A stretch of 64,000 bases of DNA from an uncultured Candidatus Saccharibacteria bacterium (GCA_964566795.1 CAZMIU010000001.1:214789-278788); one strand, 5' to 3'; positions 1,004 through 13,915 are shown, numbered from the stretch's first letter. Translations and numbers: made by a program. Notes: generated by a model not told the origin, from the letters alone.

Positions 1004-3790
1004 CTACAGAGCAGGCGTGCCGCAGGCAATAGTGCGGATCTTCTTTATCGTCATGCCTCCTACCGTGCCTGTGGGGTTTGCCAGGCCAATGGGTGTCAGG
1101 ATGTCGGCAGCGTAGGTCTTCTGGAAGGTGTTAACCGCTGCGCGGGTCATCGGGCCAAAGAAGCCGGTCGGAGGCAGCGTTGTGGCCTGGTGCGCGTTGA
1201 GGAAGTTCTGCAGCTTTACAACCTCGGGGTTGGTCATGCCGTAGCGCAGGGTCTGGCTCACAGCCAGGCTGCAGTCTATGGCCGCACCCAACACCGCGCC
1301 CGCACCGCCAAGCGACACGGTAGCCTCGCCCGATATAGGGTCAAACGGCTTGCCCTGTGTGCCCGAGCTAAAGCGCTTGCCGGTTATCGTGGCCTTGTTG
1401 CGGTAGGAGCCGGGCACGGTCGATGTGGCAAACTCGACAGAGTAGGTGAGCGTAATCTGCTCGCCGGCATCCATGGGGCCAATGTCCCACGAGCGCTCGT
1501 ACAAGACACTGCCAGTCGGGTCGTAGAGCACATCAGAGAGCTTGCCGTCGTACAGCGGGCCGGCCTTCTCAAGGTTGGTTATAACGACCTTGTAGTCGAC
1601 CAGTGCAGGCGTGGTTGTGCTTACGCGCACCACCTCCTTGACCACCGATATGTCGGGGTTTTTGCCGGAGGCAACCGCAACCGCCAGGTTGGACGAGGCC
1701 TTAATCTTGCCACTCTTGCCACCACCCCCGCCGCCACCGCCACCTCCGCCGCCGCCAGACGCAGGCGGAGCCTGCACCTCGACAGTTGCGATAGTAAACG
1801 ATGCTTCTGCGTTGCTGCCGTTGCCGTCGCTCAGCGCGGTAACCGCCACAGGGACAGTCACGCCGGTGCCCGCCGGTATATCGCCCACGGTTGCCGGATA
1901 GGTAAATGTCTCAGACTCGCCGCGGTGTACGGTGGGCAGGCGCCACTCCCGGCCCGTATCGGTGCTGTCGCCCTCTGTGTCGGCAAAGGCGAGTTTGCTC
2001 TTGTCGTAGTCGGCCTTAAGCACAATGTCGTCTGCATCGCGGTCGCCGTTGTTGGTGATAGTAAACTCGTACGCGATAGTACTGCCCGGCGCTACTGCCG
2101 CCGGAGCAACCGTCTTGGCCGAGAGCGCAAGCGCCGACTTGCCAAACGAGATGTCGCCGTTCCAGTTGCCCAGCACGTTAAACAGGGCAAAGATCCAGTT
2201 GCGGCCCACAATGTTGGTGTTGATGATGTTGACCAGATTGGCAATAGCGTAGGCGTCACCCGAGATAATATGCGACGTACCATCCTCGGTCACGGTCAGG
2301 TTGCGGCCCGTGTTGGCACCCACATCTATGTCGTTCTCGACAACTGCGCTATTGGTAGAGGAGGCCACCATGGTCGAGGAGTTGTAGCAGTTGTTGATAG
2401 GACCCTCGTCCTCGTCACAGTTGGCCACAGCAGCGCTCTCCGGGTGTTGCAGGCCCTCCGGGTCGCCCTCGGTCGCATCCTCCAAAGAGTCCTCGTTGGT
2501 TACAAGTACCAAGGTTGAGGTAGAGGTGACGCCTGCCGGAGTAGTGGACACATCGTACATCTTAAGGAAGTTCAGCCCCTCAGGAAGTGACTTGGCCGTG
2601 CCCATCCACTCGCCCGCGACACGGAACATAAAGAAGGCCGACGTGCCGCCGACATAATTCTTGTTCATATCGGTAAACTCGGTCGACTGGCTGTATGCGT
2701 CGCCTGTCATCACGACACCGCTGCCCTCGCCCGTTGTCGAGGCCATGTTCTCGCCCGTATTGGCGTTGGTAAGCACGTCGCCGGTGGTGGTGCCGTAGTT
2801 CTCATTATTTATGAGTGCATAGCTGGAGTTCATCTCCGGGGCCGAGCCGCCGCGTGCAAAAAGGTCTACAAAGAAGCTGCCTCCCGGGAGCGTAATGTCG
2901 CCATCCAGGTCGCCAAAGTTGTTGAAGGCGACCATCAGGTAGCTCGAGTTGATGATGTTGGTGTTAACTAGGTTGACCACGTTGGCACCGGCATACGCGT
3001 CGCCGGATGTAATCTCCGCATCGCCATCGCCCGAGGTGGTTGCGGTGTTGCCGCCCGCATCGGCGCGCACAATAACCGTGTTGGTTACAGTAGCGGTATT
3101 GCCGCTCTCTACCAAAAGGTTGGATGAGTTAAGGCAGGTAAGCAAGGTGCACTGCTCTTCGCCCGTCTCCGGGTTTACTGTCGGAGATGAGCCCGCCTCC
3201 CCGTCAAAAAAGTAGGAGAGGTTGTAGTCGCGCAAGTCAAGCCCGGTACTAAACATCTGGTTGAGGAAGATAATGAGGCCGGTGGAGTTAAAGATGTTGG
3301 TGTTAATAAGGTTGATGACATTGGCAAATGCAAAGGCGCCGCCGGTTACTACCGTTGCCGTGCCCTGCCCGCCCTGGGCAACGTTGTCGCCTGTAGATGC
3401 GGTTGAGGTCGAGAAGTTGGCTACCAGCGCCTCGTTAGATGAGGTGGCGTGGATCTCAGAGGAATTGGTGCACTGCTTGTCGGAGTCCGGGGAGAGCGGG
3501 TCGCAGGCGGCGTCCGGGTCTACGTTGTTGGTGTTAAGCGTGTCCTCTACCGAGGTAGACGCGTACGCGTTGCCTGTGTTGATGGTGCCGCCCACATCGT
3601 GCTGGCCGCCGGTGCCATCGGAGGATGTCGCAATAACCTGGCCGGAATTGGCGCCATTCTCGCCGTCTGGTGTCACCACATCCTCATTGTCTGCACGCAC
3701 CGGCGCCACAAAGGCAAACAAAACTACAAAAAGTAAAGAGAGGGCGAAGGAGATAAAGAATGCCTTGCGGGATGTGTGTGTATGTGTCAT
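1004..3790 (-). CDS. 928-aa secreted repeat protein with four copies of a (S/T)GDAYAxANxVNxxNTNI-type repeat, a DUF11-like segment, a poly-Gly linker and a C-terminal putative peptidoglycan-binding domain
   Basis: N-terminal signal peptide (…FVAPVRA/DNE). Repeats: TGGAFAFANVINLINTNIF, SGDAYAGANVVNLVNTNIINSS, SGDAYAIANLVNIINTNIVG. TITNNGDRDADDIVLKADYD resembles the DUF11 conserved repeat. A G13 tract is present. The C-terminal LQNFLNAHQATTLPPTGFFGPMTRAAVNTFQKTYAADILTPIG looks like a PG_binding_1 module. Confidence 0.8.
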   Translation of the reverse strand: MTHTHTSRKAFFISFALSLLFVVLFAFVAPVRADNEDVVTPDGENGANSGQVIATSSDGTGGQHDVGGTINTGNAYASTSVEDTLNTNNVDPDAACDPLSPDSDKQCTNSSEIHATSSNEALVANFSTSTASTGDNVAQGGQGTATVVTGGAFAFANVINLINTNIFNSTGLIIFLNQMFSTGLDLRDYNLSYFFDGEAGSSPTVNPETGEEQCTLLTCLNSSNLLVESGNTATVTNTVIVRADAGGNTATTSGDGDAEITSGDAYAGANVVNLVNTNIINSSYLMVAFNNFGDLDGDITLPGGSFFVDLFARGGSAPEMNSSYALINNENYGTTTGDVLTNANTGENMASTTGEGSGVVMTGDAYSQSTEFTDMNKNYVGGTSAFFMFRVAGEWMGTAKSLPEGLNFLKMYDVSTTPAGVTSTSTLVLVTNEDSLEDATEGDPEGLQHPESAAVANCDEDEGPINNCYNSSTMVASSTNSAVVENDIDVGANTGRNLTVTEDGTSHIISGDAYAIANLVNIINTNIVGRNWIFALFNVLGNWNGDISFGKSALALSAKTVAPAAVAPGSTIAYEFTITNNGDRDADDIVLKADYDKSKLAFADTEGDSTDTGREWRLPTVHRGESETFTYPATVGDIPAGTGVTVPVAVTALSDGNGSNAEASFTIATVEVQAPPASGGGGGGGGGGGGGKSGKIKASSNLAVAVASGKNPDISVVKEVVRVSTTTPALVDYKVVITNLEKAGPLYDGKLSDVLYDPTGSVLYERSWDIGPMDAGEQITLTYSVEFATSTVPGSYRNKATITGKRFSSGTQGKPFDPISGEATVSLGGAGAVLGAAIDCSLAVSQTLRYGMTNPEVVKLQNFLNAHQATTLPPTGFFGPMTRAAVNTFQKTYAADILTPIGLANPTGTVGGMTIKKIRTIACGTPAL
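1719..1757. repeat. Near-homopolymeric (GGN)13 / (CCN)13 triplet tract that encodes Gly13 inside the 928-aa gene
   Basis: ccaccacccccgccgccaccgccacctccgccgccgcc. On the coding (-) strand it translates to GGGGGGGGGGGGG. Confidence 0.7.
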
Positions 3791-3886: not shown

Positions 3887-4579
3887 CTAGATGCGAACGC
3901 GGAGGAAGTTGGTGTTGAGAACGTTGACTGCACCCGAGTTCGTAGTCGAGTTGCCAGTGCGTACCTCGCCGCCTACGCCACCTGCGCCACCATGGCCGCC
4001 TGCACCGCCGGTACCAGAGGTTGCATCGCCGTTGTTGGAGCCAGCAGCCTTGGTTGCAGAACCAGAGTTGCCACCCTCCTCGCCATCGCCGCCAGTCGAG
4101 CCGACTGCTGCGTTAAGGCCAGTAGATGCAAGAGCAGTGGTAGTCTCGTTGATGTTACCAGCGTTAGCCTGTGCTGCGACTGCCGACGAGCTGTTGAGGC
4201 CGCCGTTTACGCGAACACGGGTGTTGTTGCTGTTAGCAGTGTTGATTGCACCAGCGTCTGCCGAGGCAGAGCCGGTTACAACCAAGCCGCCTGCACCGCC
4301 GTTGCCGCCGTTGCCGCCGGAACCTGCGTTGCCTGAGGTTGCATTACCCTGGCTGCCGCTGTTTACAGAGGAGCCCGAGTTGCCACCCTCATCGCCATCG
4401 CCGCCAGTCGAGCCACCTGCCAAGTTGAGGCCGGTGTTCGAGATGGCAGAGGTGTTGCTCGTTACGTTACCCGAGTTCGAGTTGCTGATAACGAGGGAGC
4501 TGCTGTTGACTGCTGCGAGGGCCGGAGTCGCGGTTGCGAGCATGCCGAGCGCAGTGAGTGCTGCAAGAGTTTTCTTCAT
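3887..4579 (-). CDS. Gly/Ser/Asn-rich secreted low-complexity protein with an internal duplication and a C-terminal NVLNTNF motif
   Basis: Signal peptide MKKTLAALTALGMLATATPALA. Two ~75-aa internal repeats (TGLNLAGGSTGGDGDEGGNSGS… and TGLNAAVGSTGGDGEEGGNSGS…). The C-terminal GAVNVLNTNFLRV matches the NxVNxxNTNI repeat of the 928-aa protein. Confidence 0.65.
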   Translation of the reverse strand: MKKTLAALTALGMLATATPALAAVNSSSLVISNSNSGNVTSNTSAISNTGLNLAGGSTGGDGDEGGNSGSSVNSGSQGNATSGNAGSGGNGGNGGAGGLVVTGSASADAGAINTANSNNTRVRVNGGLNSSSAVAAQANAGNINETTTALASTGLNAAVGSTGGDGEEGGNSGSATKAAGSNNGDATSGTGGAGGHGGAGGVGGEVRTGNSTTNSGAVNVLNTNFLRVRI

Positions 4580-5200
4580 ATACTTTCTTTCAGAATTAAT
4601 TAATTGTTTATAAACCCGGCATCCTGCCTCCGTACGGCAAGCATGATGCGCGGTGCATCGACCAGCGTGTGAGCCACAAGCCTTTCAGCGTGCAGCCCAC
4701 GGCACAGCCAGCACTAATAGTGCGGACTATGCTCTGAACTCCACATGAATTCCCCATCTAAATGAACTTGTATTTCAAGAAACAAAAAACGCGAAGCCCG
4801 CCCACGGCGGATACCTCGCTTGTCTACACTGCTGTGTATTGTCGTGCGGTCATATACCTAACCGCTGGTTTCCCTGCACAACAGGTGCAAAACTGTCGCG
4901 CACAGGAATTATCCTACCGCCCTATAGGCGCGTCAATGCAAAAGCAGGCAAAAAACCCACTGCGCATACACAAAACGCGCCTGTCAAAATTGACAAGCGC
5001 GATTAATTAAGACATCACGTGCTTTTTCGTATAAAAATGTCTGGCGATTTATACTGTACAACAGGAGTACGATTTTGGAGAGGGCCCAAGTCCTAGGGAA
5101 ACCAGCGAAAAGCTGTCGGACACGGGCCCACTCCAGAATCTTACGCGCTCAAACACTCCCCATAGGAGATGAGCGGATACTACTGGAGCTTGCACGTCTG

Positions 5201-6226
5201 TCAATCTTGAGCGGGCTCCCCTTCTTGTGGTGTAGCTTGCTCCTGAGGCGCCTCAGGCTCTTGCAGAGCCTCGGTCTTAGGCTCTTGCAAAGACTCCGGC
5301 TGCGGCTCCTCAACCTGCAGCGGTTCTAGCTCTACAACAGGGGGCTCCTCTTGTATAGCCGGCGGCGTTGTTGACGCCTGCTCGCCCAACACCTCGCCGC
5401 TTTGCCCATGAGTCTTAGTCGTAGTTGCTGTTGTCGTTGCCGTGTCGTCTAAAGCCGGCTGCGCAAAACTTTCTATACTAAACGGGTTTACAAACGGGAC
5501 CACGGGCATGGGCGCCCATGTTGTTGCGGCAAGCAGGTTGCCCGAGGTGTACTCTTGGTCGGCAAACAGTGCCAACGTGTGCCCCGCGTACGTAAGGCCA
5601 AACACCACTGCCAGCATGAGCGACACTGCCGCTCCTATGCTGCCGCCGTGTTTTTGTGTCCGCCGCTGCACCGTACCCACAACAAACATGTCGTCCATAG
5701 TGCGCACGCGCGCGTAGCGCACAACACGCTGTGGCTTGGGCTGCCGCGCACCCCTAAGCGCCTGCCACAGCGCCACAGACTCATCGACAATAACCATAAG
5801 CGCCGGCAAACCAATAAGGAGCGCAAAGCCCAGGGGTTGGCGCGCAAAGTGGAGTACAAACCCGGCGTAAGGCACGGTTAGCCACACCTTGCCTACAACT
5901 TTCTGCGCCGCCGCCACCTGGCTGTCCGGCTCCTCGTTGGCGTCGCCTTTGGTGGTGTACCCCGCCTCTCCCTGCGCCACAATGCGGTGCGTGGTGGGTA
6001 CGCGCTTACCGTCGTTAAATGTAATGACATCGCCCACCTGGTAGTGCGCGGCGGGCTTTATAAACACCAGGGCCCCCACAGGTATGGCAGGCTCCATAGA
6101 GCCCGACTGCACAATTTTTGACTCGATACCCCCCGGTATAGGCAGCATGCTCGACATAAACACTGCGCCCACAGCAAGCAGCGCCAGGGTTATAAACAAC
6201 TGGAGTATCTGGGTAAGCCGTTTCAT
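5201..6226 (-). CDS. sipW: Archaeal/eukaryotic-type (S26B, SipW-like) signal peptidase I with a ~160-aa C-terminal extension
   Basis: The SGSMEP catalytic-Ser motif, VGDVITF, THRIV, TKGDANEEPD and VPYAGFVLH are SipW hallmarks. An N-terminal TM is present. The extension carries extra TM segments and an acidic Pro/Glu-rich tail (EPLQVEEPQPESLQEPKTEALQEPEAPQEQ). Confidence 0.8.
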   Translation of the reverse strand: MKRLTQILQLFITLALLAVGAVFMSSMLPIPGGIESKIVQSGSMEPAIPVGALVFIKPAAHYQVGDVITFNDGKRVPTTHRIVAQGEAGYTTKGDANEEPDSQVAAAQKVVGKVWLTVPYAGFVLHFARQPLGFALLIGLPALMVIVDESVALWQALRGARQPKPQRVVRYARVRTMDDMFVVGTVQRRTQKHGGSIGAAVSLMLAVVFGLTYAGHTLALFADQEYTSGNLLAATTWAPMPVVPFVNPFSIESFAQPALDDTATTTATTTKTHGQSGEVLGEQASTTPPAIQEEPPVVELEPLQVEEPQPESLQEPKTEALQEPEAPQEQATPQEGEPAQD

Positions 6227-6229
6227 ATA

Positions 6230-7168
6230 TTAGCGGTTGCGGGTTGGGACACTGCGGTCGGTGCGAACCTGCGGGCCAGCCTGCACCGGCGGCGGGAAGC
6301 CGTTGGGGCACTCGGTAGTGTAGCGGGGCAGCGGCCAGCCAAAGGTGGCAACTGTTTTGCACTTAACAAACAGGCCTATTTGCTCGCCGAGCCCCGGGGT
6401 TTTGGGCGTGGTGGTTGCCGGCTCGCCGCCCAAGCTGCACAAAAATGTGGGCTGCTCAGAGGCCACCGCCGCCTGGAGCCCCACATTGACAGAAAATGAG
6501 TCGCTCTGGGCCACGTTGCCGAGTGCCGAGCCGTCGCAACTTATCTGTGCGGTGGGCACGTTTACCGAGAGGTTGCCGGCACACCAGGCAATGCCTACAT
6601 ACTTGGTAACACCCGCGGGTATGGGCACGCCAGAGCCCGCATCGGCAAGCGCGTAGGTTGTAGATGCGAGCACTGTGGCAGCACTTTGCACTCCGGTGCC
6701 AAACAGCGGCTGCTCCCCCACCTCAAACACGTTGTCGCCGTCGTCACGCCAGGAAAAGAACTCCATGCCCTCTGCAAGCTCTCCTTTGTCTGCCGGGATG
6801 CTGGCATCGACCGGGTCCTCGGGCTCGTTCTCGCCGTTTTCCAAGCTGATGAGGTTGCTAAACTGCAGGCACATCCATGCGGGTTTGTTTACATGGAGGC
6901 TAATGGTGCTGTTGCCTTGGTCGCCCGGCATGATGTTTGAGAAGTTAAAGAACTTGTCTACACCGGGCACCAGGTTTTTTAGGTCCCACGTGGCCGCGGG
7001 TACAGGTAAGCCGTTGTAGCTGGCTTTGCTGTCGAGCTCTAGGCTAAAGCCGTTTGGCGCGGCAAAGGTTATGCCGGGTGCGGCCTGCGCGAGCAGGGCG
7101 AGGGAGCCCACTAGCACCAGCGTGGTGCCAATGAGTCCTACGTGCTTGAGCGTGCGTGCCAAGTGCAT
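6230..7168 (-). CDS. TasA/camelysin-like paralog without the AFFSD motif (TapA-like accessory candidate)
   Basis: It shares the post-signal region with its neighbours (KFFNFSNIMPGDQGNSTISLHV…AWMC versus KFFDFADLKPGDWGEDTIGLFV…YLCA). Its signal region is AQAAPGITFAAPNGFSLELD. Confidence 0.6.
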   Translation of the reverse strand: MHLARTLKHVGLIGTTLVLVGSLALLAQAAPGITFAAPNGFSLELDSKASYNGLPVPAATWDLKNLVPGVDKFFNFSNIMPGDQGNSTISLHVNKPAWMCLQFSNLISLENGENEPEDPVDASIPADKGELAEGMEFFSWRDDGDNVFEVGEQPLFGTGVQSAATVLASTTYALADAGSGVPIPAGVTKYVGIAWCAGNLSVNVPTAQISCDGSALGNVAQSDSFSVNVGLQAAVASEQPTFLCSLGGEPATTTPKTPGLGEQIGLFVKCKTVATFGWPLPRYTTECPNGFPPPVQAGPQVRTDRSVPTRNR

Positions 7169-7174
7169 TGTGGG

Positions 7175-8527
7175 TTAGGGTGTCGGGATGCCGCAGTGGA
7201 GAGCCTCTATGGCGTCTAAGTCGTATGCGTCTGCATCGTTGGGAAACAAGGCTACGTTGCTTGCGTCGGTAATGCGCACGTATTGCGCCCATGCCAAACC
7301 AGATGAGCTTATGTCTATCTCTGCGTCGCGGGTGTACACACCTGCAACCGGTTGGTATGTGACGCCGTTTTGGCTGACCTCAACGGTTATCTTTTCGTCC
7401 GGATATACGCCGCCGGTGACCTCGTACACTTTCAGATCGGCTCCAACCTCATCAAGCACGACGTTGTCGCCAAAGTTAAGCACTACGCTGCCGTGTGGAG
7501 GCCCGCCCGGCTTAAACCCAAGGCTCAGGAACGAGCTTGCAGGAAACCCTACGTCAGACGCAGCACCACTTGTCTGAGGAGCGCCAGTGGCAGCGGCAAT
7601 AACCGAGCGGTTTGCGAGCACTGCTGCCCCACTCTTTTGCGTACCCTGGCTTAGATCATTGCCGGAATCAGCATACTTTTGATTGCCCGTGCACTCGCCA
7701 AAGGTTGGGGTATCGTCCTCGACACAGACAAAGCTGTCGTTGTTGCGGGACTGCACCGCGCTAAACGCAATGTCTGCGGTAAGCGAGTCGGTTTGGGTGG
7801 TGTTGTTAAGCCCCGAGCCGTCGCATGATATGCCGCCGGAGGAGTTGGCGGGTGACTGCGGGCTGTTGATACCAAGCCCATCCTGCGCAAGCGGAGCGAG
7901 CGTAAGCGTGCCAAAGCACCACGCCTTGCCAATGTAGTGCGCCCATCCTCCCTGTACGGGGCCCGGAGCCTGACCTGGGTTCCAGATGTTGAGCGTGCTG
8001 TCGGCAAGCGTAACTGTGGTAGTGACCCCAAGCGTGAGCGCACCTATGGGGCCCTGCGATATGGGCGCCTCGTCGCTCTCCAACACGTTGTCGCCGTCGT
8101 CTGCCCACCAGACAAAGTTGACCTCGCCCGCAAGCTCGCCCTGCCCTGCGCCGTCGGTTGCGTCGCCGTCCAGACTCTCGGGCTCGTTTATGCCGTTGTC
8201 GTCGTTGCTGGTGAGCGATATGTCGGCACACAGGTAGGAGTCGTTTGTCTCGACAAAGAGCCCAATGGTGTCCTCGCCCCAGTCGCCGGGCTTGAGGTCG
8301 GCAAAGTCAAAAAACTTTTGCATCACCAGGTCGGCAAAGTCCCACGATGTTGCGGGCGAGGGGGCGCCGTTGTAGTAGCTTTCGTTGGCTACGGTTAGGT
8401 TTATCTCGCCTGCGGCAAAGATGTTGGCGACCGATGTCTCGCTGTCGCTAAAAAATGCGCTTGTACCCGCAACCAGCACGGTGCCCGCGAGCAGAACGGA
8501 ACCAAGGCTGAGCAGTATGCTTTTCAT
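7175..8527 (-). CDS. TasA/CalY (camelysin, peptidase M73 family)-like secreted protein with a SipW-cognate signal peptide
   Basis: N-terminus …AGTVLVAGTSAFFSDSETSVANIFAAGEINLTV matches the SipW-cognate class signal consensus (compare CalY GGGTFAFFSDKEVSNNTFAAGTLDL). Paralogous to 8616..10139. Confidence 0.8.
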   Translation of the reverse strand: MKSILLSLGSVLLAGTVLVAGTSAFFSDSETSVANIFAAGEINLTVANESYYNGAPSPATSWDFADLVMQKFFDFADLKPGDWGEDTIGLFVETNDSYLCADISLTSNDDNGINEPESLDGDATDGAGQGELAGEVNFVWWADDGDNVLESDEAPISQGPIGALTLGVTTTVTLADSTLNIWNPGQAPGPVQGGWAHYIGKAWCFGTLTLAPLAQDGLGINSPQSPANSSGGISCDGSGLNNTTQTDSLTADIAFSAVQSRNNDSFVCVEDDTPTFGECTGNQKYADSGNDLSQGTQKSGAAVLANRSVIAAATGAPQTSGAASDVGFPASSFLSLGFKPGGPPHGSVVLNFGDNVVLDEVGADLKVYEVTGGVYPDEKITVEVSQNGVTYQPVAGVYTRDAEIDISSSGLAWAQYVRITDASNVALFPNDADAYDLDAIEALHCGIPTP

Positions 8528-8615
8528 CGCTTGTAAAAATGAGCTTATAAGGCGCCGGGTTCCCCTCCAGCCCGCCCAGCACGAGTTGCCTCATGCTGGG
8601 TACGGCTTGATAGGA

Positions 8616-10139
8616 TTAGAGCTCGAAGTTGTACGTTGTTCCGTCAAACTCGATTGAGCTCACATAGTTTGTCGCACCTGCTGGGCCCGGCTGTCCGGTG
8701 CGGACACCCAGGAATGAACCCGGCGAGAGGAGCTTTGCTGTGGGGAACGCCGCTACGATAGAGTTCCATGAGCGGTACTGGTTTGTATCAGCATCCGGCC
8801 AACTGTTGTCGTCTGCTGTTGCAGCAGTGAGGTCAGGACCAACGGCAAACTTTGACCAAGTCCACATCGCGGTTCCTTGGGCATCAACTGTGGTCCATGT
8901 TGCCGGAGGGAGTGCGGAATTGCCGCCCGAGCCCGGTTGCATGGTCAGACGACCCTCATACGCCGGTCCCGGTAACGGGAAGTCAACGTTGAACTGGATA
9001 AACGGCGTATCGCCATCTGCAGTCGCGTCATATACACGGAACTTGAGCGAGCTGATGGTGTTGAGCAGGTTGCTAAACTGCGCAGTCGCAATGTTGTAGC
9101 GGGGATTCGGATTCGTATCCAGCTTCATCTTTGCGCCCGCCTCGCTGGCGACCACTTCCATGTGGTTCTCACCGCCCTGTCCTGAGAACTGGTCAGGGGT
9201 CATGACGGTATCGTTGGTGTCGTTGTAGAAGAACCATGGGTTCGGTCCTACACCGAGGTCATTCTGATTGACCACCACAACATTATTCCCTGCCGAGCAG
9301 GTGAAGTTCGGATTGTTGCGGGACTGCTCTGCGCGGAAGCTGATGTTTGCGGTCATGGAGTCGGTCTGCGCCTGGTTGCCCATTGATCCGCCGTCACAGG
9401 TAAGTGTGCCGGGTATAGAGGTATCTATGTCGCCTGCGCACCACGCAAGGCCAACATACGTTGTTTGGTCTCCCTCAAACGGACCATTGCCCGTCGTCGA
9501 ATCGGCTAACGCGAGAGTGGTGGTTACACCAAGGATATTGGATGCGGGGCCGGAGTCAAACAACAACGGCTCACTTGCCTGCCAAATGTTGTCTCCGGCG
9601 ACCGCTCCGTTGGTGTTTGCAAGGTCTGCCCAGGCAACAAACTGGATGTTCTGAGCAAGTTCTCCGTCAAAGTCATTGTTGGAGTCCTCTGCAACATCAC
9701 CTGCGGCAAGTTCTGGCTCTACAGACGACTCGTCATCATTTGCGGTGATGTCTACGTCTGCGCACATCCACGCATCGTTGTTTATAACGTGGAGCGAGAT
9801 TGTGTTTTCGCCCTCATCACCCGGCTTGATATCGCTTAGGTTAAAGAACTGGTTTGTGGGCCCAAGGTCACCCTGCACCCAGGTACCATCACAGTCGCCA
9901 TTAAGCAGGTCAGGACGAGTTGTCACCTCTTGGACATTCGGATCATCTACCCAGTGGTTTGTTGCATCACACACGAGACCTGCATAGTGTGCCTGAGAAT
10001 CAACCTGCAAGTCTATAGACCCTGCAGTAAACGTGTTGGCAGACGAGGTCTCAACATCGCTAAAGAACGCGCCCGTTGCACTTGCAACTACTGCTCCAAT
10101 GAATACGAGCGTGCCCGCGCTCATAAGTATTCTTTTCAT
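8616..10139 (-). CDS. TasA/CalY-like secreted protein with a SipW-cognate signal peptide; first gene of the operon
   Basis: …VVASATGAFFSDVETSSANTFTAGSIDLQV. The following FNLSDIKPGDEGENTISLHV…AWMCADVD motifs are shared with the other two paralogs. Large C-terminal domain. Confidence 0.8.
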   Translation of the reverse strand: MKRILMSAGTLVFIGAVVASATGAFFSDVETSSANTFTAGSIDLQVDSQAHYAGLVCDATNHWVDDPNVQEVTTRPDLLNGDCDGTWVQGDLGPTNQFFNLSDIKPGDEGENTISLHVINNDAWMCADVDITANDDESSVEPELAAGDVAEDSNNDFDGELAQNIQFVAWADLANTNGAVAGDNIWQASEPLLFDSGPASNILGVTTTLALADSTTGNGPFEGDQTTYVGLAWCAGDIDTSIPGTLTCDGGSMGNQAQTDSMTANISFRAEQSRNNPNFTCSAGNNVVVVNQNDLGVGPNPWFFYNDTNDTVMTPDQFSGQGGENHMEVVASEAGAKMKLDTNPNPRYNIATAQFSNLLNTISSLKFRVYDATADGDTPFIQFNVDFPLPGPAYEGRLTMQPGSGGNSALPPATWTTVDAQGTAMWTWSKFAVGPDLTAATADDNSWPDADTNQYRSWNSIVAAFPTAKLLSPGSFLGVRTGQPGPAGATNYVSSIEFDGTTYNFEL

Positions 10140-10446
10140 ATATTTTTATTTGTATATATCTAGTAAACCCATCGCGATCGACCATTGCTACACTCAAAAA
10201 GAGCTGCCTTTGTGTACTACTTGGTAATACAGAAAAGCAGCCCTATACGAAGCGCACGCACGCGATGCTTGTAACCTCTGCACCATGATTATTTCCCGCT
10301 CATTCCCGCAAGCAGTGCCGCAATAGTAGCGCAGCAAAAGATGTGTCAACTCCGCGCACATTCGTTTTTGGGGAAAACTCGGTGGAGAACCTGTACGTAA
10401 CACCTGCGCGAACTGTGCATAACATATTCGGGAATATTTTTTACAA

Positions 10447-10483
10447 ATGAAAAGAGCGGTTGCACGCTGTGCGGCCGCTCTTT
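10447..10483 (-). terminator. Rho-independent terminator downstream of the 10500..10919 gene
   Basis: aaaagagcggttgcacgctgtgcggccgctctttt hairpin followed by a T-rich run on the minus strand. Confidence 0.5.
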
Positions 10484-10499
10484 TGTCTATAAGCCTCTG

Positions 10500-10919
10500 C
10501 TAGCGCGAGCGCGTTATGCAGCCGCGGCTGTCACACTGGGGAGCCGGCGTAGGCTCTGGTGCAGGCGGGTTTACCTGGCCCTGCTGTCCCCCGATAATTA
10601 CCGTGTTGCTGTTGTCGCGGGGAGGGTTGATGTTTGTCACCGTCACCGTGCTGCTTTGGTCGCCGGTTATCACATTGGAGCCGGTATTGCCCCCTGTGTT
10701 GTTGGAAGCTGTGGCGTTGCTGGTAATGTTGCCATTGCCACCCGCGTGATGAGGAGGATTCTGCGGCACAGTTGGGAATATGTTTGGCAGCGTCGGGAGA
10801 GCCGGTGCCGGAGCAGGTGCGTCTGCATCGCGCGAGCGGTCAGAGCGGTTGTCTGCCGCCAGTGCGGGAGTTGCGAGTAAAAGAGAACCGACAAGCACCA
10901 ATGCAGCAGTTGTACGCAT
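10500..10919 (-). CDS. Small secreted Pro-rich protein
   Basis: Signal peptide MRTTAALVLVGSLLLATPALA. PAPAPALPTLP segment. GSNVITGDQSSTVTVTNIN weakly resembles the GDAY…NTNI repeat family. C-terminal Cys pair. Confidence 0.5.
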   Translation of the reverse strand: MRTTAALVLVGSLLLATPALAADNRSDRSRDADAPAPAPALPTLPNIFPTVPQNPPHHAGGNGNITSNATASNNTGGNTGSNVITGDQSSTVTVTNINPPRDNSNTVIIGGQQGQVNPPAPEPTPAPQCDSRGCITRSR

Positions 10920-11008: not shown

Positions 11009-11272
11009 TTATAGTCTACACCCGCTCTGAAGGTGCAATGAGCCCGAGCGGCGATAATTGATGATAAGACGGCACAAATAGCTTGTGGTCAAGAACACCG
11101 AGAGGGATGTGAGCGCCAAAAAGAGTCCTGCTATCCACATGTTGCCCGATGCGGCAAGCAGGTATCCCGCGTAAAGACCCAGTGGCGTCACTGAGCCAAG
11201 CCCTGTTGAGTTGAATGACAGCATGTCAGTTGGTCCGAGTGCCCCAGCGGCCAGAGTATCCGAGTTTAGCAA
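11009..11272 (-). pseudogene. Out-of-frame TM-rich ORF overlapping the GT2 3' end; possible frameshifted C-terminal membrane anchor of the GT2 gene
   Basis: The ORF encodes TGLGSVTPLGLYAGYLLAASGNMWIAGLFLALTSLSVFLTTSYL (two TM helices). It sits directly 3' of the GT2 ORF in another frame, overlapping by ~45 nt. Confidence 0.3.
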
Positions 11273-12443
11273 ACAGTATGGTGCCCCACGCTGCGATGCG
11301 CGCCAGGACTCCGCCCTGCCGCATTAGTGTGCGCGACAAGACAGAAAATCCGATGAACGCGTACGAGCCCAGGAGCACTAGTGTCATGATACTGCTAAAA
11401 ATTAACTCGGGCACAAGACTTATCCTCAGGGCCCAGTCCCACCTGTCTTTTTCCGGGTACCAGCGCATGAGCCACAACTGGAGCACATACCACGACACAA
11501 ACTGCAGTATGGAGAGCGTAATAAGGACCCTAAGCACCACAGACGGCACGCCCCCGCCGTCTACAATGAGGAGCGTTATAAGGAGCGCCAGCGTGGCGAT
11601 AAACACCACGTGGCCCAAGACATCCTGGAGCACGGCTGTCTTGTCGCGGGCGCCAAGCACCACCTGCACCCCGCCCAGGCTCCACCTGGTACGCTGCCGC
11701 CAAAACTGCCCCAGAGTCTCGGGGACCTCTGTCCAGGCGGGTGCATCCAGCGCCGCGCGCACGCTCCAGCCCAGGGACTTTAGCCGGGTGGTCATCTCGT
11801 AGTCCTCAATAAGGTGGCTCTCGGCAAAGGGGCCTGCCTGCCTAAGCGCCCGGGCGCGCAGCGCCGTAAGCATCCCGTGCATTACCAGAGGCCCGCGCAA
11901 AAAGCCCTGGTCGCCCAGGCGTATGGCATTAAAGCCCACATACTCCAGGCCCTGCAGGCGCGTAAGCAGGTTTTTGTTCTTATTGAGCACGCCGCAGCGC
12001 GAGCACACCGCCCCCAGCGTAGGGTCGCTAAAGAGCGCCTCTGTCATGCGCTTTACGGTCGTGGGCCCCACCACCACGTCGTCATCAAGCGTAATGATGG
12101 CGGCGGGCTTGTAGGGGCCTTTGCGCTCAAACAGGTACGCAAGCGCCAGGTTAAGCGCCCCGGCCTTGAGCCTGTTGTGCGGCGTGCGCAACACCACAAC
12201 GCGCGGGCCCATAGCCTTAAGGCGCGCCAGCACCTCCATAGCGGGCGCGTAATCCTCTGGCGTGGAGTCGTCTACCACCAGCACCTCAAGCTTGGGGTTG
12301 TACCGTACAAGGTCCTCTACCAAACAAAGCGCCGTCGCCCCCGGTTTGTAGGTAGGGACGACGGCGCTTACGTTGGGCTCAAAAACCTTGTGCGTACTAA
12401 GAGAGCGTGTTGGGACTAGAAAGTTTTTGAGCGATACCCTCAT
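11226..12443 (-). CDS. Family 2 glycosyltransferase (membrane-associated processive GT2-like)
   Basis: VVPTYKP, VVDDSTPED, TLDDD (the DxD), and QRTRWSLGG (the QxxRW motif). Hydrophobic C-terminal helices. Confidence 0.8.
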   Translation of the reverse strand: MRVSLKNFLVPTRSLSTHKVFEPNVSAVVPTYKPGATALCLVEDLVRYNPKLEVLVVDDSTPEDYAPAMEVLARLKAMGPRVVVLRTPHNRLKAGALNLALAYLFERKGPYKPAAIITLDDDVVVGPTTVKRMTEALFSDPTLGAVCSRCGVLNKNKNLLTRLQGLEYVGFNAIRLGDQGFLRGPLVMHGMLTALRARALRQAGPFAESHLIEDYEMTTRLKSLGWSVRAALDAPAWTEVPETLGQFWRQRTRWSLGGVQVVLGARDKTAVLQDVLGHVVFIATLALLITLLIVDGGGVPSVVLRVLITLSILQFVSWYVLQLWLMRWYPEKDRWDWALRISLVPELIFSSIMTLVLLGSYAFIGFSVLSRTLMRQGGVLARIAAWGTILFAKLGYSGRWGTRTN

Positions 12444-13915
12444 TACCGGCCAAAGAGCCAGTTGATAAAGCGGGTAAGCCAGCCCTCGCCTGCCCCGGTC
12501 GAGGTGGCGTTAGCCGCAGTAGCCGTCTGTACCTTGGGGTCTATAACGCTACTATTCTCGTCTACCTTAACGTTGGGAGCGACCACGCTGCCCACAGCGG
12601 GCGCTGCTCCTGCCGCAGCAGGTGCCACTGCGCCAGCGCCTGTGGTGCCCATGCTCGTTATACCCTGCGCGCGCAGCTGGGGCTGCACCTGGCGCACATA
12701 GGCTATCTCCTCAATCTGGCTTGCCGAGAGCGGGAAGTCTTTCTGGAACTTGCAGTAGATAGTGTTTATCGTCTTTTGCGTTGTGTAGTACACGTAGCCG
12801 GTAGCGCCCCTGGCCCCCCACGGGGTGAGGATGTCTGCGGCGTACTTGTTCTGGAAGGCGTTAACCGCAGCAAGCGTTGCCGGGCCGTAGGTGCCTGTAA
12901 CCGGCAGGGTGTTGCCCTCAAAGGTGTTAAGGAACACCTGGAGCTTGGCCACCTCGCCTGCGTCGTTCTGCGCGCCATACTTGATATAGCCGGTGAGGTA
13001 CATGGGGCACTCATCCTGAGCACCCAACACCTCGCCCTGGCTGCCGCTGGAGCGCGAGCCGCCACTGCGGCGGTGCGAGCTGCCGCCCGATGAGTCGCCA
13101 TCGTCGTCATTGCTGCCGCCACCGCCGCCCTGACCCTCGTCGGTCTCATTGTCGTCCTGTGCGTCTGAGCAGCCCAGGTCTGCCGGGAAGTCGACTAGCC
13201 CGTCGCCGTCGTTGTCCTGGCTGTCGGAGCACTGCGCAGAGCCACCGCCGCCTGTAGAGTCGGTTTCGTCGGTGTCGTTGGCATCGGTGCAGCCCGGATC
13301 TGCCGGGAAGTCTGTCTTACCGTCGCCATCATTGTCCTGGCCGTCTGAGCAGGCAGGGTTGTTGCCGCCGCCCTGGTCAGTCTCGTCGGTGTCAGAGGGG
13401 CTCGAGCACCCCGGATCTGCCATGTCGACTTTGCCGTCGCCGTCGTTGTCCTGGCCGTCTGCACACTGTGCCGGCAGGGTAGGATCGTCGCCTTCGTTGT
13501 CATCGGTCGGCGTAGAACAGCCTGGGTCTGCGTCGGCATCACCCGGTACACCCCAATCTACTTTGCCGTCATTATCGTTATCGATGCCATCGTTGCACTG
13601 TGGAGGTACGGTGCAGGGCAGGTCGGACTGGCTTTGATTGCCCGGCAAATCCGGACACCAGTCTATTACCTGGCCGCCATCATCCTCGCAGTCCTCCTCA
13701 AACATCGGAAAGATCCCCGTGGTGCCATCACCCTCATCTCCCACCTGGTCAACCAAGCAGAGGATCTCTGTGGCAAGTGTTGCGTGCACGAGACGCTGGT
13801 TTCCCCAAACAAACGCGGTGAGCGCAAGCGCCACCGCCATCATGAAGGCGATAGACGTGCGCAATTCCCGAGTCAACGTCATAAGTAATATGATTACGCT
13901 ATTAAATAAAAGCAC
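12443..13915 (-). CDS. Secreted protein with 4-5 Cys-flanked Asp-rich calcium-binding repeats (CxDGQDNDGDGKxD…DPGC), a Gly/Ser linker and a C-terminal peptidoglycan-binding-like domain
   Basis: Repeats CADGQDNDGDGKVDMADPGC, CSDGQDNDGDGKTDFPADPGC, CSDSQDNDGDGLVDFPADLGC. C-terminal LQVFLNTFEGNTLPVTGTYGPATLAAVNAFQNKYAADILTPWG is paralogous to the C-terminus of the 928-aa protein. Confidence 0.75.
   Translation of the reverse strand: MLLFNSVIILLMTLTRELRTSIAFMMAVALALTAFVWGNQRLVHATLATEILCLVDQVGDEGDGTTGIFPMFEEDCEDDGGQVIDWCPDLPGNQSQSDLPCTVPPQCNDGIDNDNDGKVDWGVPGDADADPGCSTPTDDNEGDDPTLPAQCADGQDNDGDGKVDMADPGCSSPSDTDETDQGGGNNPACSDGQDNDGDGKTDFPADPGCTDANDTDETDSTGGGGSAQCSDSQDNDGDGLVDFPADLGCSDAQDDNETDEGQGGGGGSNDDDGDSSGGSSHRRSGGSRSSGSQGEVLGAQDECPMYLTGYIKYGAQNDAGEVAKLQVFLNTFEGNTLPVTGTYGPATLAAVNAFQNKYAADILTPWGARGATGYVYYTTQKTINTIYCKFQKDFPLSASQIEEIAYVRQVQPQLRAQGITSMGTTGAGAVAPAAAGAAPAVGSVVAPNVKVDENSSVIDPKVQTATAANATSTGAGEGWLTRFINWLFGR
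13150..13560. repeat. Tandem ~96-bp coding repeats (four copies) that encode the DNDGDGK calcium-binding modules
   Basis: Recurrent DNA blocks …ctgccgggaagtc..ccgtcgccgtcgttgtcctggc.gtc.gagca… are visible directly. Confidence 0.6.

Follow-up and report, generated by a model that had tools for sequence, protein, structure and literature searches.

We found that a 64,000-nucleotide (nt) stretch of DNA from an uncultured Candidatus Saccharibacteria bacterium (GCA_964566795.1, CAZMIU010000001.1:214789-278788; this whole stretch is called the window below) carries, at positions 5201-10139, an operon that encodes a SipW-type signal peptidase together with three proteins of the TasA/camelysin type. 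We propose, at a probability of about 60% and by analogy with the TasA fibre of Bacillus subtilis, that this operon is a donor-strand-exchange fibre kit, in which shaft subunits would be accompanied by an acceptor-only cap and by a donor-only, TapA-like nucleator or anchor. The original prediction, made from the DNA alone, had named a SipW peptidase with three TasA/camelysin-like paralogs, which is supported by curated hidden Markov models (HMMs), by the alignment of the paralogs and by a fold match. Added interest lies in a conserved split of the components into three classes, in a fusion of the peptidase with a donor module and in an operon-specific RNA, all three being computational findings with comparative support and with putative roles.

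Operon layout and family assignment

The four open reading frames (ORFs) are co-directional on the minus strand, have exactly the coordinates first given for them (Table 1) and are separated, in transcription order, by gaps of 88, 6 and 3 nt. All peptide strings quoted in the original prediction were located (AGTSAFFSDSETSVANIFAAGEINL, ATGAFFSDVETSSANTFTAGSIDL, SGSMEP, VGDVITF, THRIV and PYAGFVLH), and for the first gene, which encodes the 507-amino-acid (aa) subunit A, gene callers begin at Met6 and obtain a protein of 502 aa. The region is one operon, with terminator-like hairpins on both sides. The hairpin downstream of the peptidase gene is likely the end of the operon, and the one at the end of the upstream gene (-22.5 kcal/mol, z = -4.24, with 0 of 200 shuffles as stable) separates the 5' end of the operon from that gene, the promoter presumably lying within 10140-10440. 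As a control for chance similarity, an HMM of the first 48 residues of the family, covering the signal and donor region, was run against every six-frame segment of 50 aa or more in the window, 680 in number. The matches consisted only of the four operon ORFs (87, 66, 21 and 15 bits), the best match outside the operon having E = 0.57.

Upon examining the two large subunits, we observed that both exceed the cutoff of 19 bits of TIGR04088, the model of the SipW-cognate signal, with 23.0 bits for subunit A and 20.6 bits for subunit B, in agreement with the AFFSD-type cognate signals that had been ascribed to two large proteins. Subunit B additionally scores 65.7 bits with the signal/donor HMM. The three paralogs are mutually 37-38% identical (subunit B against A, 37%) and have core motifs in common, and at the family level 84 of 86 relatives match PF12389 (Peptidase_M73) at E <= 0.01, with a best E of 8.8e-9. 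For the 507-aa protein, AlphaFold2 gave, from an alignment of 86 sequences, a model whose mean predicted local distance difference test score (pLDDT) is 88 and whose confidence is low only in the signal and the next strand (residues 21-37); the modelled mature domain has a TasA-like jelly-roll/beta-sandwich fold. When this model was compared with the PDB using Foldseek, the TasA fibre 8aur_A was the top match (E = 3.6e-4, probability 1.0, 208 columns) and the sole one at E <= 1e-3, so that the structural comparison suggested at the outset led to the TasA fibre. Two short motifs, xLxxxKPGD and NxxQxxSxxxxxxFxxxQ, are also common to the family and to the mature domain of TasA.

Judged from sequence and model together, the paralogs are TasA-family proteins of a distinct, larger subfamily, as their size had suggested, with an architecture of a ~270-aa N-domain with insertions, four conserved cysteines and variable C-terminal beta-sandwich domains. 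The cysteines are invariant or almost so (C126, C234, C248 and C281 in the numbering of the 507-aa protein) and imply two disulfides; TasA, checked against the 8aur sequence, has none. We also observe an invariant acidic cluster, WxDDGDNxxE / EPE (W170-D172-G182-D183-N184-E190 and E141-P142-E143 in the same numbering), a possible Ca2+ site that lacks a counterpart in B. subtilis TasA. Metalloprotease ("camelysin") activity was considered and rejected, since the translations show no HExxH-type motif by eye and the Pfam match covers the signal region only.

The fourth ORF encodes a SipW-type enzyme of the endoplasmic reticulum/archaeal type, as indicated by TIGR02228, by SEC11 homology and by invariant catalytic residues. 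It scores 102.2 bits against TIGR02228 (archaeal-type signal peptidase I; cutoff 51.85), as expected from the S26B archaeal-type assignment first made from SGSMEP and the three other peptidase strings, and 18.2 bits against the bacterial, LepB-type model TIGR02227, whose cutoff of 47 is not reached. The strict cutoff of 190 of the Bacillus SipW equivalog NF046067 is not reached either (99.2 bits); the model scores thus class the 341-aa peptidase as the same subfamily type as SipW and not as a Bacillus SipW orthologue in the strict sense of NCBI. The nearest solved structures are human SEC11C (7p2q, E = 3.5e-7) and SEC11A, with the alignment spanning the catalytic motifs, and S43 (in SGSMEP), H80 (in THRIV), D95 and D101 are invariant in 78 homologues, a Sec11-type Ser-His(-Asp) arrangement and not Ser-Lys. 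The catalytic domain is flanked by membrane anchors, placed at residues 3-34 and 129-154 by hydropathy and at helices 2-27 and 131-161 by AlphaFold2.

Donor-less, donor-only and RNA components

In B. subtilis, residues 28-38 of TasA, which are the first 11 after SipW cleavage, insert into the next subunit, and the resulting fibre is non-amyloid (PMC9674648, PMC10151520); the "amyloid-like" fibres of the original prediction are therefore an outdated description, TasA fibres being donor-strand-exchange polymers of folded subunits. By analogy, the motif AFFSDxETSxxN of subunits A and B would correspond to the TasA donor strand. The 312-aa paralog has an ordinary-looking signal peptide, with a putative cleavage site between LLAQA and AP, and resumes at TFAAPNGFSLELDS; its gap in the paralog alignment falls exactly on AFFSDxETS, the 11-12 residues of AFFSDxETSxxN being missing, and what is missing would be precisely that strand. 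No Pfam or NCBIfam model matches this protein, TIGR04088 included, and its N-terminus alone also has no match at E <= 10, so the third paralog does lack the cognate motif, as first noticed. When relatives were scanned with a regular expression for the donor motif, it was found in 0 of 119 relatives of the 312-aa protein (50-73% identical, all named "hypothetical") and in 115 of 119 relatives of the 507-aa protein, three of the four misses in the latter being visible failures of the expression. Orthologues lie directly upstream of SipW in five related loci (L009, L011, L012, L013 and L014), and the donor-less paralog adjoins SipW in 6 of 8 loci. These comparisons indicate that the 312-aa paralog belongs to a large, conserved donor-less subfamily and that, by sequence, it retains the TasA-like domain without the donor-strand residues.

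Upon closer examination of the peptidase ORF, we observed that the second membrane anchor is followed by a basic loop (residues 157-196; 10 K+R against 2 D+E), a third hydrophobic segment and the motif HTLALFADQEYTSGNLLAATTW, which scores 14.9 bits (E = 6.8e-4) with the signal/donor HMM within the six-frame set of the window. By the positive-inside rule, the third hydrophobic segment would be an internal signal peptide, with the donor-like motif outside the cell. The remaining tail, counted over residues 235-341 (107 aa), contains 17 P, 17 E, 12 Q and 14 T, with 2 K+R against 20 D+E, and AlphaFold2 gives it a pLDDT of ~45-60, no secondary structure and no folded domain. The C-terminal part alone matches no curated NCBIfam family, TIGR04088 included, even at E <= 10, and for the fusion there is no Pfam or NCBIfam match beyond the peptidase models and no homology to TapA. 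Among the 121 best SipW homologues, 87 are long forms (240-579 aa), and the subunit signal/donor HMM finds a donor-strand-like motif at residues ~200-300 in 86 of these 87, with the consensus GGTLSYFxDxExSxGNxFxAGxW, followed by acidic tails, by lamin-tail (LTD) domains or by a small TasA-like beta domain. In the window, L009, L011 and L012, the module and SipW form one continuous reading frame; where SipW is short (L006, L008, L013 and L014), a gene of its own encodes the module, with a start that overlaps the SipW stop. At the level of sequence, the peptidase ORF thus appears to hold a further cognate signal/donor-strand module, a fifth component of the cassette. A frameshift or assembly artefact was rejected as the origin of the fusion, since five independent assemblies contain exactly this 341-aa ORF, a variant with 96% identity has the same length, and long forms make up 87 of the 121 best homologues. 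Separately, an MDD(M/I)F motif within the basic loop (residues 177-181, 5690-5704, minus strand) is conserved across the long SipW homologues and could be the relic start of a once-separate gene or an internal start site.

An RNA hairpin of -36.3 kcal/mol (z = -3.03), with 0 of 200 shuffles as stable, lies in the 88-nt spacer that separates the genes of subunits A and B. The same hairpin is found 3' of the first subunit gene in L009 and L011-L014, with z = -3.9 to -5.9, and L006 and L008 lack it. Scanning metagenomes for the pattern returned 120 matches, mostly due to chance, of which 10 directly follow a TasA-like ORF; an inner stem of 9 bp or more occurs in nine matches, seven of them right after a TasA-like ORF. 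The hairpin is not a general repeat, since only matches beside TasA-like genes had the inner stem, and the two other loose pattern matches in the window lie in coding sequence and form no hairpin. In an alignment of 15 sequences, 96.3% of cells pair, and the covariation score of 0.63 exceeds that of shuffles (0.225; 0 of 500) and of slid controls (0.07-0.16), with compensatory changes at 10 of 11 inner pairs; the outer stem was fixed by the search pattern in 9 of the 15 sequences, and the inner stem was unconstrained. The sequence of the outer stem is conserved and that of the inner stem variable. No Rfam family matches the hairpin and no U-tract directly follows it; it is a candidate attenuator, mRNA stabiliser or processing site that could set the ratio of major to minor components.

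When partitioning the related cassettes, two operon subtypes emerge. The first (L006 and L008) has three full subunits and neither the donor-less paralog nor the hairpin, and the overlap between its donor-only gene and the SipW stop is 44-50 nt. The second (the window, L009 and L011-L014) combines two or three full subunits with the donor-less paralog and the hairpin, and its donor-only module is either part of the SipW ORF or overlaps it by 4 nt.

Proposed models of fibre assembly

By analogy with B. subtilis, SipW would remove the signal peptides of the subunits and thereby expose AFFSDxETSxxN at the N-termini of subunits A and B as a free donor strand, and each strand would insert into the next beta-sandwich, head to tail, to give a non-amyloid fibre whose shaft would be decorated by the C-terminal domains, which resemble carbohydrate-binding modules (CBMs). 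The donor-only module fused to SipW would supply the first strand in the manner of TapA, nucleating the fibre at the peptidase and possibly tethering it to the envelope. The donor-less 312-aa paralog could accept a strand and not pass one on, which would make it the distal cap, and the hairpin downstream of subunit A probably keeps the major subunit in high proportion to the other components. The N-terminus of B. subtilis TapA mimics the donor strand and nucleates the TasA fibre (PMC9674648, PMC10151520), and TapA is a strand donor that is cell-associated, of low abundance and genetically coupled to sipW (PMC10151520).

Several observations weigh against this proposal. The PF12389 model suggested in the original prediction, unlike TIGR02228 and TIGR04088, gives the window proteins scores just below its gathering threshold (22.2 and 18.1 bits against 22.5), with matches to residues 9-49 only, in the signal/donor region. 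Sequence searches of the PDB, with the single 507-aa sequence and with the 86-sequence profile, return no TasA match, and hhalign aligns the family profile with TasA over 25 columns only, at 2.4% probability, leaving homology of the mature domain undetected; as sequence methods fail to reach it, this homology rests on fold and motifs. For the fused module, the AlphaFold2 model shows the internal motif as a low-confidence helix that is not docked in the peptidase, and the internal site TYAG-HTL-ALFADQE shows no clean -3/-1 cleavage pattern, so cleavage of the module is uncertain. Additionally, L006 and L008 have no donor-less paralog, and a cap is thus not obligatory.

The same fibre could be built with the opposite polarity, the donor-less paralog being an uncleaved, membrane-anchored base and the donor-only module being cleaved off to cap the distal groove, where the released module would display its acidic tail, or the LTD domain of relatives, at the fibre tip. 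In the donor-less subfamily, conservation of the signal region is low, an h-region often being followed by RGGxxG without an obvious AXA site, the fused module has the parts of a cleavable signal (basic n-region, h-region and extracytoplasmic motif), and the LTD and other beta domains of the relatives' modules would suit a distal functional tip. The good LLAQA/AP cleavage site of the donor-less protein in the window nevertheless disagrees with an uncleaved base, and the cell-associated, sipW-coupled TapA (PMC10151520) favours a proximal donor-only module, which makes reversed polarity improbable in our assessment. It is likewise unlikely that the proteins do not polymerise at all and are separately secreted or wall-associated glycan-binding or adhesive proteins with CBM-like C-domains, exported by a dedicated SipW-type peptidase for which the N-terminal motif is only a recognition element. 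Such adhesins are less likely because the conserved motif extends into the mature protein, reaching ~20 residues past the cleavage site, which a recognition element does not need, and because the donor-less form and its donor-only complement are both conserved in many genomes, which is hard to explain without strand exchange; the TasA fibre is moreover the best Foldseek match.

We also considered that the motif fused to SipW may have no part in a fibre, being instead the remnant of a fusion with a degenerate TasA-like paralog, an autoinhibitory pseudo-substrate or an extra membrane anchor that regulates the peptidase. The complete small TasA-like beta domain that follows the motif in L006 and L009 suggests descent from a paralog, and the copy in the window is among the weakest matches (17 bits). 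Furthermore, B. subtilis SipW is reported to have a second, non-catalytic function in its C-terminus. We give little credence to this explanation, as no other part of the extension is conserved as strongly as the motif, which 86 of 87 long homologues have while their tails diverge completely, and as loci without the fusion keep it in a translationally coupled gene of its own.

If the donor-strand-exchange reading holds, the cassette would represent a natural split of donor-strand exchange into parts that donate and accept, accept only and donate only, with the donor-only part physically fused to the processing peptidase in many genomes, and simple predictions would follow for the initiation, termination and anchoring of such fibres. 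The extracellular scaffolds of monoderms have a model in TasA-type fibres, in which the nucleation and anchoring step by TapA is still debated, and bacteria of the candidate phyla radiation (CPR) live attached to other cells, with surface structures beyond type IV pili being almost unknown. A more specific and tentative extension, which we hold to be doubtful at present, is that five parts suffice for CPR bacteria of the Parcubacteria/Kaiserbacteria type to assemble a polar donor-strand-exchange pilus anchored to the cell. The nucleating strand would be borne by the peptidase, with signal processing and fibre initiation at one membrane site, the tip would be capped by an acceptor-only subunit, and an operon-specific RNA would set the stoichiometry. 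Such a pilus would add a further class of surface filament in ultrasmall bacteria beside type IV pili and any sortase-assembled pili, and a candidate organelle for host attachment or matrix formation that bears carbohydrate-binding domains. The cassette also nominates a widespread and abundant gene set for CPR-host adhesion or matrix formation, and the donor-less subfamily, now only "hypothetical protein", would gain an annotation.

Distribution, neighbouring genes and comparison with known systems

We found at least 749 TasA-like, 703 SipW-like and 231 donor-less homologues. Most of the TasA-like homologues carry no source name, and those that are named belong to Candidatus Kaiserbacteria, Parcubacteria, Moraniibacteria, Pacebacteria, Minisyncoccia or the "Patescibacteria group", which fits the CPR-like host first suspected; one NCBI record is labelled Acetobacteraceae instead. 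The 703 SipW homologues carry the same taxonomic labels. A contig search with the single 507-aa protein gave two loci, the best named relative being a Candidatus Parcubacteria metagenome-assembled genome, and the inspection of related genomes that had been suggested revealed comparable cassettes in L006, L008, L009 and L011-L014. Some relatives are named "TasA family protein" or "SipW-dependent-type signal peptide-containing protein" by NCBI, and Patescibacteria are listed among the phyla with readily identifiable PF12389 homologues by Wang et al. 2022 (PMC9245690). The gene family is hence already known in CPR at the level of surveys and annotation, and with hundreds of CPR homologues the view that such a fibre system is unusual for these organisms does not stand. 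In the literature on TasA, SipW and camelysin in CPR and on SipW fusions, only this survey sentence was found, which proves no novelty; with literature access limited, the donor-less subfamily, the SipW-fused donor module and the conserved hairpin are apparently undescribed.

Table 1. Coordinates of the operon components, flanking elements and corresponding features of related loci (window positions unless a locus is named; res, residues).
Feature	Position (nt)	Strand	Details
Terminator-like hairpin with U-tract, end of upstream 139-aa gene	10441-10492	-	fold energy and sequence
TasA-like subunit A, first operon gene	8616-10139	-	507 aa
SipW-type signal and donor strand of subunit A	10008-10139	-	res 1-44
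TasA-like jelly-roll N-domain of subunit A	9285-10007	-	res ~45-285
CBM-like beta-sandwich C-domain of subunit A	8619-9284	-	res ~286-507
Two-tier RNA hairpin directly 3' of subunit A stop	8561-8615, core 8566-8610	-	fold energy, covariation
TasA-like subunit B	7175-8527	-	450 aa
SipW-type signal and donor strand of subunit B	8396-8527	-	followed by TasA-like N-domain and C-terminal beta domain unlike that of A
Donor-strand-less TasA-like paralog	6230-7168	-	312 aa
SipW-type signal peptidase ORF	5201-6226	-	341 aa
Signal peptidase domain with transmembrane segments TM1 and TM2	5759-6226	-	res 1-156; Ser43, His80, Asp95, Asp101
Basic loop of SipW ORF, predicted cytoplasmic	5642-5758	-	res 157-195; charge, hydropathy
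Internal signal-peptide-like segment and donor-strand-like motif	5516-5641	-	res 196-215 and HTLALFADQEYTSGNLLAATTW, res 216-237; in frame with SipW
Acidic Pro/Glu/Gln/Thr-rich tail of SipW fusion	5204-5515	-	res 238-341; predicted disordered, extracytoplasmic
Intrinsic-terminator-like hairpin	4976-5001	-	11 bp, 7 GC, T-rich tail; ~200 nt past SipW stop
PgaC/IcaA-like GT2 gene next to the operon	11226-12443	-	
Peptidoglycan-binding 490-aa protein	12443-13915	-	
Neighbouring GT2 region, L010	L010:1962-3506		
Neighbouring GT2 region, L012	L012:637-2496		
Neighbouring GT2 region, L014	L014:55-2057		
Separate donor module, L006			291 aa; 50-nt overlap with SipW stop
Separate donor module, L008			130 aa; 44-nt overlap with SipW stop
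Separate donor module, L013			362 aa; 4-nt overlap with SipW stop
Separate donor module, L014			358 aa; 4-nt overlap with SipW stop
Hairpin in relative, L009	L009:11504-11565		
Hairpin in relative, L011	L011:5232-5292		
Hairpin in relative, L012	L012:6424-6485		
Hairpin in relative, L013	L013:4323-4385		
Hairpin in relative, L014	L014:4345-4407		

Upon examining the neighbouring genes, we observed that a PgaC/IcaA-like family-2 glycosyltransferase (GT2) adjoins the operon in the window (TIGR03937, E = 4e-29, below cutoff) and that GT2 genes also adjoin the fibre operon in L010, L012 and L014, with a peptidoglycan-binding protein in the window and L012 and a polysaccharide deacetylase in L014. 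A "matrix island" of exopolysaccharide and fibre genes, echoing Bacillus eps plus tasA, is possible. The 490-aa gene at 12443-13915 (minus strand), whose stop overlaps the start of the GT2 gene, encodes acidic double-disulfide repeats (NF033662, 46.6 bits against 41) and a peptidoglycan-binding domain. The genes that flank the operon include three (1004-3790, 3887-4579 and 10500-10919, all on the minus strand) whose secreted products carry ordinary signal peptides and have in common Gly/Asn/Ser/Thr-rich repeats of the type (S/T)GDAxAxANxVNxxNTNI, and the flanking protein of 928 aa also has DUF11 and PG_binding_1 domains. An F-type ATP synthase operon lies 3' of the cassette, directly or after one or two genes, in L006, L008, L013 and L014; in the window surface-protein genes are found there instead, and synteny is partly conserved. 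In L009 (Kaiserbacteria CP064968.1, a complete genome), the third TasA-like gene (L009:12947-14361) is split into overlapping ORFs of 278 and 210 aa, which is a frameshift, a pseudogene or a sequencing error, and a sortase and a SpaA-like gene lie just upstream of the TasA-like operon. The closest long-contig relative, L008 (GCA_040384205.1; subunit 63% identical), has COX1, COX2, COX3, COX4 and UbiA (L008:4679-9036) directly upstream of its TasA-like operon; such aerobic respiratory genes are atypical of CPR genomes.

Among known systems, the tapA-sipW-tasA operon of B. subtilis (8aur; monomer 5of1/5of2) resembles the window in that a peptidase of the archaeal/endoplasmic reticulum type is encoded beside its substrates, the SipW-cognate signal motif runs on into the mature N-terminus as the donor strand, and the subunits are beta-sandwich/jelly-roll proteins. 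In both, a strand-donating element is coupled to sipW, through a stop-start overlap of tapA and sipW in Bacillus and through a fused or overlapping module in cassettes of the window type, and both TapA and the module have a donor-strand-like N-terminal segment predicted to lie outside the membrane, that of the module matching the subunit signal/donor HMM. The gene order differs, however, running in the window from the subunits through the cap and sipW to the donor module, and the window subunits have 312-507 aa, four cysteines, large insertions and CBM-like C-domains, whereas TasA has 261 aa and no cysteine. The donor module lacks both an Ig domain like that of TapA and any similarity to TapA in sequence, and the dedicated donor-less paralog sets the cassette apart from the B. 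subtilis operon. The B. cereus operon sipW-calY1-(bc1280)-calY2 (Peptidase_M73) likewise combines several TasA-family paralogs with SipW, and one paralog of this camelysin operon has been proposed in a TapA-like role (PMC10151520), but CalY proteins are complete TasA-type paralogs of ~200 aa, and donor-less or donor-only forms or a peptidase fusion do not appear in the cited descriptions.

In Pyrobaculum calidifontis, AbpA and AbpB are TasA-like jelly-roll subunits that assemble by donor-strand complementation, with an accessory protein proposed to give the first strand; this archaeal locus has no dedicated signal peptidase (PMC9245690), and the sequences are unrelated at the level of motifs. 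Finally, the chaperone-usher pili (Fim/Pap) are not homologous and provide a functional analogy only, the window system having no usher or periplasmic chaperone and belonging to a monoderm envelope. Their logic of parts is nonetheless analogous, with a donor-less tip (FimH-like), a shaft that donates and accepts strands, and strand complementation by an accessory protein. In pap, a stem-loop after the major pilin gene gives differential expression.

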